A DNA stretch of 64,000 bases from the sequence record NC_101837.1, one strand, 5' to 3'. The notes below the pieces were generated by a model, which worked only from the letters and a program-made list of their open reading frames with translations, had not been told where the DNA came from and made no database searches. Of the stretch, positions 28,829 through 31,282 are shown piece after piece. The translations under genes and the position numbers were made by a program. This DNA comes from a phage. Within the stretch, counting starts at the first letter, position 1. Each line of letters begins with the position of its first letter.

Positions 28829-29174
28829 GTTTCCTCCATTATCACGTGATAGGTGGATTTTATCATAGCAAATACTGATTGTCAAGTTCGCCGCAGGGTG
28901 GTATTCCCTGCGACTTGTCCAGCGTCCTGGACCAGCAAGACCCAACAAGTGGGTTACCAGAGGCCTATTACCCGCGCTTCGGCTCGACCTTGTTACAGGT
29001 TGGCTGGGGTCACATCGTCATGTGCTGGCTGCCCCTACCATTTTAAGTGTGGTGCACTATCAAGCCCTCTAAGGGGAACTCAGCCTTCTCCGAACCCTGT
29101 TTCAAAGCATCCAGAGATAAAGCCATCAAATTCATCTTTAAATTGGATATTCATCATGATACACGAAAACAACC

Positions 29175-29417
29175 TCATTGTAAAGCACAAATAAATAAAA
29201 CATACTTAATTTGTTTGTTATCAGGCTCAGGGTAGAAGTAGAAGATCTTGCTATCACCGATCTGAACACCACCATCCCAACAACATAGCCCATAACCTGT
29301 ATTCATACAAGCTAAGTCGTTGGCAAAATCTATTGCATCATCCAGTGCACGAAATTCACCTTCATCTTCTAAATAATCCTCATTCATGGAACGAAAAACG
29401 AGCTTAACCTTAAACAT
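29175..29417 (-). CDS. hypothetical protein
   Basis: 80-aa ORF, minus-strand small-gene array. Confidence 0.35.
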   Translation of the reverse strand: MFKVKLVFRSMNEDYLEDEGEFRALDDAIDFANDLACMNTGYGLCCWDGGVQIGDSKIFYFYPEPDNKQIKYVLFICALQ

Positions 29418-29493
29418 AGCATTACCTGTAGACCTCGTAAGTTAAAATTGCATCACATCATATTGCAGATCTTATCAGGTAACACTATTTTTG

Positions 29494-29703
29494 TCAACAG
29501 ATTCCGGCCTTATCCTTCCTGTCTGCGTATTCTTTAATCGCAACCTCATCTGCATTAGTGACCAGGTCTTCAAAGTAACTCTCAAGCTCCTCGTCAATGT
29601 CAGGAGACCAGCCCTTTTTCCTGTCAGTGTGAATCGCAGACTTGTTAAACTTAGTACAGTTCTTTGCTACCGGATTGTTCATTAAGCACCCCTCAGCGTT
29701 CAT
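29494..29703 (-). CDS. hypothetical protein
   Basis: 69-aa ORF overlapping stop of upstream gene. Confidence 0.35.
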   Translation of the reverse strand: MNAEGCLMNNPVAKNCTKFNKSAIHTDRKKGWSPDIDEELESYFEDLVTNADEVAIKEYADRKDKAGIC

Positions 29704-30271
29704 AGTAAATCTTATTTAACATTACCTCATCCTTTGCAGAAAGGATATCTAGATATGCATCACCGAATCTACCTGCAACAACCTCTGCATGATACATCAC
29801 TTCGTTAATATCGTCAAGAGTGATAACTGGATGACCGTATCTCTCTGAGTATTGTCTCAGAGTGCGATGTAGGGAGTCATCATCATAGGCAGACTTTTTA
29901 ATATCGCAAACACGACGAATAGCCTTGATGTCGAAAAACCCTGTACGATACCAACCAAGAAAAAGGTTTCGTGCAGTGTCAACATCTACATCAATACCAT
30001 TAAGAACCTTATCTACAAGATAGCTGTCATCCTTTGGACCAGCTTCCTTAGTGCGAATGTAGTTGCCATCTTTTCCAGGTGACATCTCCTTCTCATCACC
30101 AACCTGCATGCCATCATTTGGCGGTGTTAGCCACTTATCCGGATGCTTACGATCACGAGCGTTAGAATGATTACGCTGGAAACCGGGCTTCCACTTGAAA
30201 GTTTTCTCCATCTGTTCTTCATTCTGATAACGTTTTGCAATCTTTTCACGGTCATCTTTGCGTGAACCCAT
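29693..30271 (-). CDS. hypothetical protein
   Basis: 192-aa ORF; first gene downstream of the long noncoding region 30272-30931. Confidence 0.45.
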   Translation of the reverse strand: MGSRKDDREKIAKRYQNEEQMEKTFKWKPGFQRNHSNARDRKHPDKWLTPPNDGMQVGDEKEMSPGKDGNYIRTKEAGPKDDSYLVDKVLNGIDVDVDTARNLFLGWYRTGFFDIKAIRRVCDIKKSAYDDDSLHRTLRQYSERYGHPVITLDDINEVMYHAEVVAGRFGDAYLDILSAKDEVMLNKIYYER

Positions 30272-30774
30272 AGCTGCCTCCTCTTCAAGTTATAGAAAAA
30301 CTCACTGTATCGCTTTGTAACGAGCTTTTCTATCAAACTGGTGCGATTGCATTACCTGGTATAGTTTATATAGCTGTGGAGCGATTTAGGGGCCTTCTTG
30401 TCAGTTTCCACACATAAACTTCATCCAAGCTCGCGCGGGAGACTCTCAACCGACTCCTTACGGCGCTGGCAAGCTTTCGTCGGTGGTCCACATCAGTGCT
30501 CGGCCTTTGGCCTGCGCTATCGCTTCGCTCCCACACATGTTAACAGACCTGCATGTATGAACTTCTGTTATTGTGTGCACCAAGGAGGCCCGGCATCTCG
30601 CCCCTCGTAGGCGAGTGCCAATGAAGGGCCGACACTGCCCATAGTAAGTAATAAATTTAAAACATGGTACTTAGGATCTAGTATATTCTACATAAGTTAA
30701 GTATATGTACTTAGTACCATAAGTACTAGATCTTTTATTTTTTATTATTTAGTTATTTTAGTTATATTCTTTAT

Positions 30775-30857
30775 GTGTCCGTATCACGGACAGTTAGTGT
30801 CCGTATTACGGGCAGATGTGTCCGCGTGACGGACAGTAGTGTCCGTATCACGGACAG
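30775..30857. repeat. array of four tandem 19-bp palindromic iterons (GTGTCCGTATCACGGACAG consensus), 21-22 bp period
   Basis: Copies at 30775, 30797, 30818, 30839; each an inverted repeat TGTCCGT-N3-ACGGACA; flanked upstream by AT-rich palindrome-containing tract 30651-30774. Confidence 0.85.
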
Positions 30858-30931
30858 TTAATAGTATCCGTTCCATGACGAACATAAAACATACGAATCC
30901 TTATAGTACAGATATTTAAGTTTTTACTGGT

Positions 30932-31282
30932 CTAACCAGTTGTTGACATCCGAATAACTTCTTCTGGTGGCAAAACTTTGGAAAATGTGCATCTTTTACC
31001 TCTCCCTTGTGTGGATGTTTCAACCACTCCTGCACATTCTAAAGTTTTAACGCACGCTGCTGCTTTTGTTTTCTTTATCCCAACATCTGCTGCAATTTTC
31101 CTTGTGCTTGGTGTGAAGCGTGAATTTCCTCCAAGCTTATACCAGTTGTGCAGGTAGCAGTATACGATCTTGTCATACAAGTCAAGAACAACAACCTCTC
31201 CAGTTGTGTCATTCAAAACTTTTGACATAGATAGTATTTCAAGGGGGACTTTAAGATATAGCAGCTTATCCCCATCTTTCAT
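30932..31282 (-). CDS. putative helix-turn-helix DNA-binding protein
   Basis: 116 aa; HTH-like segment TRKIAADVGIKKTKAAACVKTLECAGVV; stop lies ~75 bp from iteron array. Confidence 0.45.
   Translation of the reverse strand: MKDGDKLLYLKVPLEILSMSKVLNDTTGEVVVLDLYDKIVYCYLHNWYKLGGNSRFTPSTRKIAADVGIKKTKAAACVKTLECAGVVETSTQGRGKRCTFSKVLPPEEVIRMSTTG

Follow-up and report, generated by a model that had tools for sequence, protein, structure and literature searches.

The DNA analysed here (the window, 64 kb in length) comes from an rV5-like coliphage, and the island under study adjoins the tRNA genes of this phage. Windowed GC content is 57.5% at 28886-29085, compared with a window mean of 43.5% (SD 3.7% for 200-nt windows). 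It represents the third-highest 200-nt value across the whole 64 kb, bearing out the original prediction of an island GC-richer than its surroundings. All neighbouring genes and tRNAs lie on the minus strand according to the ORF list and ARAGORN. Relative to transcription, the island therefore lies on the upstream side of the tRNA cluster, and its earlier placement downstream of the cluster was wrong. A 112-aa gene separates the two. It encodes a basic protein, was found in 226 records by tblastn, and is conserved across the Vequintavirinae; in other genera its homologue is located within the tRNA cluster. The cluster comprises Arg-tct, Tyr, Ser, an odd 99-nt call, Thr, Met/Ile2-cat, and Pro. 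Host-derived DNA was excluded as the origin of the island, as blastn returned zero matches in 5,426 complete E. coli genomes. A second GC island (island B, 30380-30640) is restricted to Vequintavirus and shows no similarity to the first, so that kinship between them was rejected.

Table 1. Features at the island and in its neighbourhood, in order of position.
Feature	Position	Strand	Basis and remarks
tRNA cluster	27580..28392	-	ARAGORN and Rfam; downstream of the island, same strand
112-aa gene, MADTTKKRRRRGRP...	28493..28831	-	tblastn, phrog_3330 match; context of the RNA
Near-consensus sigma-70 promoter (predicted), TTGACA-17-TAAAAT, extended -10 TG	28857..28885	-	Consensus scan, 11/12 matches
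Proposed structured RNA body, 194 nt	28886..29079	-	Alignment; no conserved ORF
H6 hairpin, GUCGCAGGG-AAUACCA-CCCUGCGGC	28890..28914	-	Folds; the hairpin of the original prediction
H5 hairpin, GUCCAG-GACG-CUGGAC	28917..28932	-	Folds
H4 hairpin, ACCCA-CUUGU-UGGGU	28940..28954	-	Folds
Hypervariable patch	28957..28980	-	P3 loop dinucleotide, P0 3' strand, and bases beyond
Core module	28963..29003	-	Read as a three-way junction; model R1
P1 two-part hairpin, GGGG-CAGCCAG-CACAU-GACG-AUGUG-A-CCCC	29006..29035	-	Read from the sequences
5' block H1, GUUCCCCUUAGAGGGCUUGAUAGUGCACCACAC	29047..29079	-	With small hairpin CCC-UUAGA-GGG
32-aa ORF, MRLFSCIMMNIQFKDEFDGFISGCFETGFGEG	29080..29178	-	ORF list; annotated in some GenBank records
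Sigma-70-like promoter candidate, TTTACA-17-TATCAT	29156..29184	-	Consensus scan, 10/12 matches

Promoters were called by consensus matching only. The near-consensus promoter, which begins 4 nt past hairpin H6 and is also predicted in the Gotham record, is predicted to serve the 112-aa gene and the tRNA operon. The TTTACA-17-TATCAT candidate on the other side of the island falls within the end of an 80-aa ORF and could start a transcript of ~260 nt through the island; equally good sites number 10 in the region against 5.7 expected from shuffles, which makes it weak evidence.

The coding capacity of the island was then evaluated. The original prediction described about 345 bp without a credible ORF and dismissed a 113-aa plus-strand ORF as unsupported. 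The dismissal was justified: this ORF is intact in 3 of the 13 close relatives and frameshifted in 10, where indels shorten it to 61-73 aa, and Pfam and PHROG scans of the 113-aa, 55-aa, 62-aa, and 39-aa ORFs returned zero families. However, the upper 98 nt carry a 32-aa ORF, and the genuinely ORF-free stretch is 29079-28832. The 32-aa ORF overlaps the stop of the preceding 80-aa ORF (ATGA coupling) and matches phrog_6828 at 5.5e-9. In a sister lineage (L087, L089, and L092) it is cut to 8 codons with a promoter in its place, a truncation that argues against a conserved gene. Within the ORF lies a hairpin, UCUCUGGAU...GUUCGGAGA, in which four substitutions (alignment columns 186, 204, 207, and 208) all retain pairing; the region probably lies outside the conserved RNA.

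Aligning 13 rV5-like copies with 3 sister-lineage copies delineated the body of a proposed structured RNA on the minus strand. Its layout, from 5' to 3', comprises a 33-nt block, P1, a three-way-junction core, and three further hairpins. Conservation of this stretch equals or exceeds that of the coding DNA on its flanks, with 5 of 87 columns varying at 29079-28993 across the 13 genomes and 8 of 83 in the adjacent segment of the 80-aa ORF. The 5' block H1 is the same in the window and in L089, though the neighbouring P1 differs completely, and 29 of its 33 columns are invariant over 11 aligned copies (four sequences have one to two changes each). A second CCCAUAGAGGGCUUGAAAGUGC copy occurs 3' of the core in L087 and L089. 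The core is read as P0 (CCA/UGG type), P2 (ACCU-GUAANA-AGGU), P3 (CGAGC-CNRA-GYGCG), and the joining strand GUAAU. Model R1 has one match only in the window, at 29004-28958 (60.2 bits, E = 2e-16); neither R1 nor blastn of the island found a second core copy within the 64 kb. A possible degenerate module in the tRNA spacer 28021-27924 was discarded as not significant (32/500 shuffles).

The 3' half of H4 (10 nt, 28949-28940) is deleted in L054, and the counterpart of H4 in L089 is CCCAUAGAGGG. In H5, an A-to-G change at 28918 in 6 of the 13 copies converts U-A into U-G, a pair allowed on the minus strand only; the L089 counterpart is GCUGG-AGACGGA-CCAGC. H6 corresponds to the imperfect hairpin of about 16 bp proposed near 28886-28922. 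The location was correct but the 16 pairs were not, since H6 has 9 contiguous pairs (GUCGCAGGG/CCCUGCGGC) and a 7-nt loop, or ~12 pairs in our own reading if a 4-nt bulge is allowed. A C-to-U change at 28912 in L049 yields a U-G pair. H6 is the least conserved part of the RNA and is absent from the sister lineage. It was not scored as an intrinsic terminator and has no U-tract 3' of it. No intrinsic terminator closes the RNA, and it may exist only within longer transcripts.

Folding with shuffled-sequence controls, one of the checks proposed with the original prediction, recovered the hairpins but no exceptional energy. The z-score of the 199-nt core region is -1.8 on the minus strand, where 5 of 200 shuffles fold equally well, and -1.6 on the plus strand; the full 345 nt gave -1.5 and -0.8. 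The case for structure therefore rests on the comparison with other phages and not on thermodynamics. An RNAalifold fold of the whole-island MAFFT alignment was rejected because it misplaced P1, the two lineages being offset by one column, and P1 was consequently read directly from the sequences.

The comparison with related phages, also proposed at the outset, revealed both conservation and covariation, the latter in P1 and in core pair 3/36. The stems of P1 are GGGG/CCCC and CACAU/AUGUG in rV5-like phages, and GGAAC/GUUCC and CUACG/CGUAG in L089. The sister P1 (GGAAC-AGGAGGG-CUACG-GACG-CGUAG-G-GUUCC) has the same architecture and the same GACG loop, and all ten of its base pairs are changed with pairing retained. 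P1 variants in T4-like phages include CCUCAU/AUGAGG, CCUCAC/GUGAGG, CCUUAU/AUAAGG, and GGGAA/UUCCC versus GGGAG/CUCCC. The stems at the P1 position are UGAAUG/CAUUCA in T1-like phages and UGUGUAU/AUACACA in L057. Beyond the rV5-like and sister-lineage forms, other phage families show at least five different, unrelated hairpins here. Core pair 3/36 is AU in 23 cases, UG in 4, CG in 3, and UA in 3, and is never unpaired. Across the core pairing, 97.4% of cells are paired, against 13-47% with the partner slid, and the covariation score was reached by 0 of 500 shuffles. The two outer P0 pairs flip from C-G to G-C and from C-G to U-A, as judged by eye in a shifted register, and these flips count as unpaired in the register used for the covariation test. 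P2 and most of P3 never vary, and covariation thus neither supports nor refutes them. G-U pairs occur in P1, P0, P3, H5, and H6, all of which would be A-C mismatches if read on the plus strand. The sister lineage has a promoter motif of its own for the RNA, TTGACA-17-TATACT, whose end is 7 nt ahead of the first base (GUUCCCC), and another TTGACA-17 promoter is present 3' of the RNA.

The core is widely distributed among phages. Its consensus, CCAACCUGUAANAAGGUCGAGCCNRAGYGCGGUAAUGGG (~40-41 nt), is near-invariant and unannotated, and a blastn search of 50,697 phage records recovered about 940 carriers, T4 among them. These belong to at least four unrelated groups, namely T4-like Straboviridae, Vequintavirus, T1-like siphoviruses of ~46 kb, and a 151-kb Pseudomonas phage. 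The core was found in none of the 5,426 complete E. coli genomes and in none of 185,579 species-representative genomes. A search of IMG/VR with the loose pattern AAGGTCGAGCCNARNGCGG gave chance matches only, in GC-rich coding DNA. In T4-like phages (about 800 genomes) the module is always in the 5' leader of vs.8, away from the tRNAs; in T4 itself it occupies the denV-vs.8 spacer, outside the tRNA cluster. In every context outside the T4-likes, the module and tRNA genes are on the same strand, with the module in or beside the tRNA operon and the nearest tRNA 45-560 nt off (rV5-like phages, the sister lineage, T1-like loci, L057, and Pseudomonas phage PsgM04F). The hairpin preceding the core differs between contexts, and the module is part of larger putative RNAs in T1-like phages (~450 nt) and in the Pseudomonas phage (~490 nt). 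A possible link to a downstream protein was discarded, as no homologue of T4 Vs.8 occurs in the window or in the vicinity of the other copies. The literature searched mentions neither the sequence nor an RNA from rV5-like phages or from the spacer between denV and vs.8 of T4; denV does come up in a RegB paper, but in connection with another site.

One part of the RNA is hypervariable. Among 13 near-identical genomes, 15 of the 27 columns of this patch vary, compared with 22 of 170 elsewhere along the RNA (Fisher p = 3e-6). The patch alleles of rV5-like genomes are identical to those of T4-like and T1-like copies.

We also compared the island with known RNA families. Rfam 15 (4,227 models, covering tRNA, tmRNA, RNase P, SRP, 6S, GOLLD, ROOL, self-cleaving ribozymes, and riboswitches) detected, at gathering thresholds, five tRNAs and nothing else in the whole window. 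When 28300-31000 and 28850-29160 were searched at E up to 10, only two chance snoRNA matches (10-16 bits) fell in the RNA body, and at E up to 5 the module was unmatched at the T4, T1-like, L057, and L010 loci. The Rfam scan suggested earlier thus identified no family for the island RNA. Neither ARAGORN nor Rfam called a tRNA or tRNA pseudogene in the island. Local alignment to about 60 tRNA genes of the window and relatives reached a top score of 22, which 63 of 200 shuffles equalled, and blastn and nhmmer revealed zero similarity to the tRNA regions of relatives. Decayed tRNAs, suggested by synteny, therefore failed the alignment, blastn, and nhmmer tests. With respect to mimicry or antisense pairing, the longest words shared with the host 16S, 23S, and 5S rRNA, RNase P RNA, and tmRNA region are 8-10 nt, which is typical of 300 shuffled queries (8-10, at most 13). 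The segment GAGUUCCCC at 29081-29073 appears to match the opening 9 nt of the E. coli type I-E CRISPR repeat. RNA anti-CRISPRs are characterized by a repeat-like hairpin with a 6-bp G+C stem and the 3' handle of the host repeat. In contrast to such solitary I-E repeat mimics, the island stem has only 3-4 bp and its 3' handle differs. Other possible resemblances, which we do not count as evidence, are to RNase P specificity-domain T-loops, the SRP Alu UGUAAU turn, the twister CCCAAGC loop, the tRNA-Tyr anticodon loop CUGUAA, and a hairpin-NCCA minihelix.

Of the readings considered, we favour, with a probability of about 0.5, that in which the island encodes a small structured RNA on the minus strand, either as a gene or as a processed part of a transcript, and this RNA is likely stable and trans-acting. 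It would span ~194 nt (29079-28886), or ~260 nt with a start at the promoter candidate upstream. It would be an early product of host RNA polymerase, encoded just ahead of the promoter of the 112-aa gene and the tRNA operon. In its fold, successive hairpins would flank a ~41-nt three-way junction with near-invariant unpaired bases, and this junction may be a docking surface for one partner shared by all these hosts. The RNA would thus act as a stable product, as tRNAs do, rather than as DNA or as a peptide. What the data show directly is the sequence anatomy, the absence of coding capacity, conservation and covariation, the strand-specific G-U pairs, the promoter motifs, and the occurrence across phages; we infer its transcription, stability, and trans action, as well as the identity of its partner. 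Given the tRNA context, a component of tRNA processing or translation is the most likely partner. The phage families sharing the core have no obvious RNA-binding protein in common, and the T1-like genomes are only about 46 kb, which together suggest a host partner. The original prediction had left open a stable small RNA, a processing signal, or a decayed gene remnant. The comparative sequence evidence, with its pairing-preserving changes, sister promoter, and shared core, favours a small RNA, putatively stable, or a processing signal. It speaks against a remnant, as there is no conserved ORF, no protein family, and no similarity to about 60 tRNA genes.

More tentatively, the 40-nt junction might be a portable RNA module of a new class, exchanged among unrelated virulent gamma-proteobacterial phages and acting on a core host machine or a host defence. 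It would have been grafted into the vs.8 leader in T4, the ~190-nt RNA of rV5-type phages, and the ~450-nt RNAs of T1-like and Pseudomonas phages, where it could function as an aptamer, as a small ribozyme, or as a decoy or sponge. On this view, an arms race would have left its mark in the loop and patch that are hypervariable between near-identical rV5-like genomes.

The main rival to a stable RNA is a cis-acting leader, which appears somewhat doubtful. The junction would be an aptamer or protein-binding operator controlling the downstream genes of the same transcript (the 112-aa gene and tRNAs here, vs.8 in T4-likes), in the form of a riboswitch, a translational operator, or a processive-antitermination signal. 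The T4-like module always lies 60-70 nt upstream of vs.8 whatever the upstream gene, which fits a cis-regulator better. Between it and the vs.8 start, a conserved block, AUG(C/U)GCCAYGGAAUGGCCC, resembles the 3' half of the core and could act as an alternative pairing partner. The rV5-like, sister-lineage, and T1-like modules are likewise situated between a promoter and downstream tRNAs, and such a compact three-way junction, its joining bases invariant, is a typical aptamer design. However, the downstream genes are unrelated (the P-loop protein Vs.8, phrog_1488; the 112-aa protein, phrog_3330; tRNAs), no Vs.8 homologue is found near non-T4 copies, and no Rfam riboswitch or leader family matches. 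Moreover, in both L089 and the window the RNA is followed by a strong predicted promoter ahead of the next gene, so most downstream transcripts would be without the element. In L057, the module comes after the tRNAs, in an RNA ending at a terminator.

Alternatively, the conserved 40 bp could be a DNA-level feature with no RNA function, such as a recombination or exchange point, the scar of a mobile cassette like the PeSLs (promoter-early stem-loops) of T4-type phages, or a protein-binding site, its likeness being kept by exchange between co-infecting phages. We regard this as unlikely. The similarity is indeed sharp-edged with unrelated flanks, the rV5-like patch shares its alleles with distant copies, and the T4-like element sits at the border of a variable internal-protein region. 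T1-like phages exchange whole 5' domains with the module present or absent, and the island ends 3' in a stem-loop with an early promoter immediately after it, the arrangement of a PeSL (PMC4122927). Against this, PeSLs form series within a genome (PMC4122927) whereas the core has one copy per genome, keeps the same orientation to transcription in every context, and has no promoter or terminator consensus. The compensatory changes and single-strand-compatible G-U pairs point to selection on an RNA fold. A protein-coding element or decayed gene, be it a micro-ORF, the 113-aa ORF, or a tRNA-gene remnant, is very improbable and already largely refuted. The variable core positions 3, 12, 24, and 36 are spaced every third base in one reading frame, as third codon positions, which speaks for coding and against the structured RNA. 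The frame, which reads ...P-T-C-N-K-V-E-P-K-R-G-N-G, is open in all copies, and T1-like copies have a complete ORF of 23-24 codons from ATG or GTG. But in 34 of 43 distinct contexts, T4 and the window included, no ATG, GTG, or TTG occurs between the upstream in-frame stop and the core, for which reason the micro-ORF was dropped, and the base-pair covariation between positions 3 and 36 would not be expected of a coding sequence. The frameshifts in 10 of 13 relatives and the lack of Pfam and PHROG matches weigh against the 113-aa ORF. Mydovirus, Seunavirus, and Henunavirus do have tRNA-Cys and other tRNAs ahead of the 112-aa homologue, as a tRNA remnant would suggest, but the island itself gave no tRNA signal in the ARAGORN and Rfam calls, the shuffle-controlled alignment, or the blastn and nhmmer searches described above.

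Several known systems resemble the element in part. RNAC and RNAD of T4 are RNAs of yet unknown function and are classed as late RNAs (PMC9697503). Also termed species 1 and 2 RNAs, they are small non-coding RNAs encoded in the tRNA gene cluster of this virulent coliphage, and they set the best precedent for a phage tRNA region yielding something other than tRNAs. Unlike them, the island has early promoter motifs of the sigma-70 type, and no sequence relation to RNAC was found, its best local alignment to partial RNAC (PMC9697503) being equalled by 88 of 500 shuffles. PeSLs are series of composite terminator/promoter motifs within a genome (PMC4122927). At its 3' end only, the island is similar, with H6 (28914-28890) ending 4 nt before TTGACA-17-TAAAAT, and the element likewise lies at mosaic borders and is apparently exchanged between genomes (PMC4122927). 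Unlike a PeSL, the core is single-copy, lacks terminator and promoter signals, and covaries as an RNA does.

The element shares its closing helix, two short hairpins, and near-invariant joining strands within about 45 nt with purine-type riboswitch aptamers, along with a 5'-leader position in T4-likes. Its hairpins are much shorter, however, with no Rfam match and no consistent downstream gene, and in our own reading of the aligned copies no covariation was seen between the two core loops. GOLLD and ROOL are large, ornate structured RNAs that are often carried by phages or prophages, often next to tRNA genes, and occur mainly in Firmicutes and relatives. They are closer in size to the ~450-nt T1-like and ~490-nt Pseudomonas-phage RNAs; the window RNA differs in being only about 190 nt, in having no Rfam match even at E up to 10, and in belonging to phages of gamma-proteobacteria. 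The put RNA of HK022 consists of short stacked stem-loops just downstream of early promoters and acts in cis on host RNA polymerase. Antitermination of this type, compared here by position and size only, would suit an element ahead of highly structured tRNA genes, but in several contexts a new promoter intervenes before the genes to be protected.

The near-invariance of the core over at least four phage groups, together with its absence from the bacterial genomes searched, points to a strongly constrained interaction with a shared host component. If this reading is correct, T4, the most studied phage, and about 940 genomes in all would carry an unrecognised conserved RNA element, which would constitute a new family among the few structured RNAs of virulent phages. 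T4 and the rV5-like BASEL phages are genetically tractable, so the idea is directly testable. As this case shows, GC-rich gaps in AT-rich phage genomes are productive places to search for such RNAs, and the element would offer a handle on the role of non-tRNA RNAs in phage tRNA regions.

Every ORF and each of the seven tRNA calls near the island lies on the minus strand, with the island preceding the tRNAs in reading direction; it is thus upstream of the tRNA cluster, and the original prediction had its order reversed. The window phage is an rV5-like Vequintavirus, and the 1.1-kb stretch around the island matches 118 phage records at 95-100% identity. The predicted GC-richness was confirmed: 28886-29085 has 57.5% GC against a window mean of 43.5% (sd 3.7%), ranking third-highest within the 64 kb. 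The hairpin described as about 16 bp is present at 28914-28890 (H6), but with 9 contiguous pairs. The 199-nt core region folds only mildly better than shuffles (minus strand z = -1.8, plus strand -1.6). The signal scan detected no intrinsic terminator at the island; promoter-like sites were about twice as many as in shuffles, and promoter calls are read as hints only.

Features of the island and its surroundings
Feature	Coordinates	Strand	Remarks
192-aa, 69-aa, 80-aa ORFs		minus	First in transcription order, ahead of the island
32-aa ORF	29178-29080	minus	ATGA overlap with stop of 80-aa ORF (coupled)
ORF-free island	29079-28832	minus	After 32-aa ORF
Weaker promoter candidate	29184-29156		TTTACA-17-TATCAT; consensus scan
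Sigma-70 promoter candidate			TTGACA-17-TAAAAT, near-consensus; begins 4 nt past last hairpin, facing 112-aa gene and tRNAs
112-aa gene	28831-28493	minus	After island
tRNA cluster	28392-27580	minus	After 112-aa gene
tRNA-like call	27825-27923		ARAGORN: 99-nt "tRNA-???", four-base anticodon; Gotham record: 97-nt tRNA-Lys-TTT
tRNA-sized spacer	27924-28021		98 nt, within tRNA cluster; 7-bp closing stem GUUGACC/GGUCAAC; no tRNA call
3'-phosphatase/5'-polynucleotide kinase	31283 onward	minus	Annotated in Gotham record (locus L001); about 2.5 kb upstream of island
116-aa helix-turn-helix protein	30935-31282	minus	phrog_12838 "replication initiation protein" (PHROG), E = 5e-80
Four direct repeats	30775-30860		21-22 nt, after 116-aa gene; palindrome GTGTCCGTATCACGGACA in each
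AT-rich palindromic stretch	30640-30760		After direct repeats
Island B	30380-30640		GC-rich, ORF-free; 59.5% GC, top 200-nt value of the window

Hundreds of T4-like phages, T4 included, gave a 44-48-nt match (85-90% identity) in a blastn search with the island; it lies in the unannotated denV-vs.8 spacer, oriented to the genes as it is in the window. Additional blastn searches and pattern scans located this core in about 940 of 50,697 phage records, of which about 60 copies were actually read. It occurs in two T4-like leader types (Tequatrovirus, Dhakavirus, Gaprivervirus, Jiaodavirus, Marfavirus); in the rV5-type RNA; in T1-like phages of about 46 kb, within the 5' portion of a noncoding unit of about 450 nt that is read from a promoter and precedes tRNA-Arg(tct) and tRNA-Met(cat); in the metagenomic contig L057, after four tRNAs, where the RNA ends at a terminator; and in Pseudomonas phage PsgM04F, filling a 495-nt gap within a tRNA cluster. 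No core was found in 5,426 complete E. coli genomes or in 185,579 species-representative bacterial and archaeal genomes. Other Vequintavirinae genera lack it in the corresponding tRNA regions, so it looks acquired in Vequintavirus.

The core consensus, N-CCA-ACCU-GUAANA-AGGU-CGAGC-CNRA-GYGCG-GUAAU-GGG, can be read as two hairpins, P2 and P3, and a joining strand, enclosed by the helix P0. In an alignment fitted to this model, 97.4% of cells pair across 33 distinct copies, compared with 13-47% when the 3' partner is slid, and the covariation score was reached by 0 of 500 shuffles. Pair 3/36 is AU in 23 copies, UG in 4, CG in 3 and UA in 3, and never unpaired; one P3 pair switches between G-C and G-U. 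C-G at the outer two P0 pairs is replaced by G-C in two lineages (L087/L089/L092 and L082/L093) and by U-A in the T1-like L076 and L084 and the Pseudomonas phage copy L058, flips that were read by eye in a shifted register, the tested register scoring the same sequences as unpaired. The T4-like contig L082 carries a diverged tandem copy, in which the first P2 pair is G-C instead of A-U and the P3 hairpin is rebuilt; this second copy (5091-5134, minus strand) lies between the first copy and vs.8, and scores 37.7 bits with R1, the search model of the core. Few lineages contribute the covariation within the core, where the main signal is the invariance of about 30 bases; since most of P2 and P3 never varies, the interior fold rests on few events. 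A hairpin always stands immediately 5' of the core, in a slot filled by at least six unrelated sequences, with compensatory changes between closely related T4-likes.

Among 13 rV5-like copies, 5 columns vary in the 87 nt of 29079-28993, compared with 8 of 83 in the adjoining segment of the 80-aa ORF. Substitutions within predicted helices retain pairing, and several create G-U pairs (e.g., 28918 in hairpin H5, 28912 in H6), which fit the minus strand only, because the opposite strand would give A-C mismatches. Variation is concentrated in a patch at 28980-28957 (15 of 27 columns vs 22 of 170 elsewhere, p = 3e-6).

A diverged lineage, sister to that of the window and absent from the GenBank phage collection, is represented by three metagenomic contigs (L087, L089, L092). 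These carry homologues of the 80-aa and 112-aa genes, share the tRNA-Arg/Tyr pair with the window and hold a 170-nt version of the island. Its first 33 nt are identical between the window and L089, and 29 of 33 columns of this 5' block are invariant over all 11 aligned copies. The hairpin P1 differs at all ten pairs with pairing kept (GGGG-CAGCCAG-CACAU-GACG-AUGUG-A-CCCC in rV5, GGAAC-AGGAGGG-CUACG-GACG-CGUAG-G-GUUCC in L089). The 32-aa ORF, which has a phrog_6828 match and an annotation in some records, is shortened to 8 codons in these contigs. In its place stands a promoter motif, TTGACA-17-TATACT, that stops 7 nt ahead of the first conserved base (GUUCCCC); a further TTGACA-17 motif lies 3' of the RNA. 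This arrangement is the best evidence that the island may be its own transcription unit, and the truncation the best evidence that the 32-aa ORF is not a conserved gene.

Rfam returned no family for the window copy, even at E up to 10, or for the copies at the T4, T1-like, L057 and L010 loci (E up to 5). A tRNA remnant was ruled out by sequence tests against tRNA genes and regions, and resemblance or complementarity to E. coli rRNAs, RNase P RNA and the tmRNA region was within chance. The nearest precedents are T4 RNAC and RNAD, non-tRNA RNAs of the phage tRNA region, and the large RNAs GOLLD and ROOL; the published part of RNAC has no similarity to the island. Most of the inspected GenBank records, phage rV5 (NC_011041) and T4 strain GT7 (KJ477686) among them, carry no annotation at the site, and any feature annotated under the match is a hypothetical protein. 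The literature searched contains no mention of the core sequence or the island RNA. As the tests for membership of Rfam families, tRNAs, protein-coding genes, host stable RNAs and RNAC relatives came back negative, the RNA is filed as a putative new family.

Several further elements were recorded. The T1-like phages and PsgM04F carry promoter-driven noncoding units of about 450-490 nt (L047 7650-8115, L059 1500-1930, L062 900-1350, L058 1914-2408) built of long hairpins, with conserved bases CACAACAGGUAAGAGCAUUG ... CAGUGCUCUUUCCGUUGUG, no Rfam match and interchangeable 5' domains, only some including the module; annotation there consists of spurious-looking short opposite-strand ORFs. The segment 30640-31282 looks like an iteron-type replication origin. 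Island B, confined to Vequintavirus (118 records, 88-100% identity, mostly unannotated), gave no hit in Rfam and shares no similarity with the first island; it may belong to the origin or represent a further noncoding RNA. The annotated kinase/phosphatase places a tRNA-repair enzyme in the early region that also holds the tRNA cluster. The 27825-27923 call falls below threshold with the Rfam tRNA model; it could be a tRNA of unusual form or one with an insertion. The 27924-28021 spacer was rejected as a second core module, its gapped resemblance being not significant (32 of 500 shuffles).

We favour, at a probability of about 0.5, a small structured minus-strand RNA made early, whose junction would be a docking site for a partner shared by Enterobacteria and Pseudomonas. 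The main rival, a cis-acting leader, is less likely: in its favour, the position ahead of vs.8 is fixed in T4-likes, where a second core-like block also precedes vs.8; against it, downstream genes are unrelated between contexts and a promoter intervenes in the window and in L089. That second block, AUG(C/U)GCCAYGGAAUGGCCC, is conserved at the nucleotide level and not at the protein level, because the reading frame differs between phages. In T4 GT7 (L002 1440-1580) the spacer lies in one open frame with vs.8 (216-aa ORF), which is broken in other T4-likes.

A purely DNA-level exchange point would account for the mosaic alleles in the hypervariable patch but leaves the strand-specific pairing unexplained, and we consider it improbable. 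Coding or decayed-gene readings are the least credible, at very long odds. The plus-strand 113-aa ORF, already dismissed in the original prediction, is intact in 3 of 13 close relatives and broken in the others by indels of 1 to 10 nt, and Pfam and PHROGs gave no match for any ORF in the island. Variable core positions 3, 12, 24 and 36 all fall on the third codon base in a single open frame. Despite this periodicity a coding frame through the core was rejected, as a start codon is lacking in 34 of 43 contexts, T4 and the window included, and there is paired covariation between positions 3 and 36.

Sequence comparison shows the anatomy of the element, its non-coding status, the covariation, the strand and the distribution. 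The favoured structured RNA would be transcribed early from the minus strand, be stable and act in trans, its near-invariant junction docking a partner found in both Enterobacteria and Pseudomonas. As all non-T4 copies have tRNA-operon surroundings, this partner may come from the tRNA-processing or translation apparatus.
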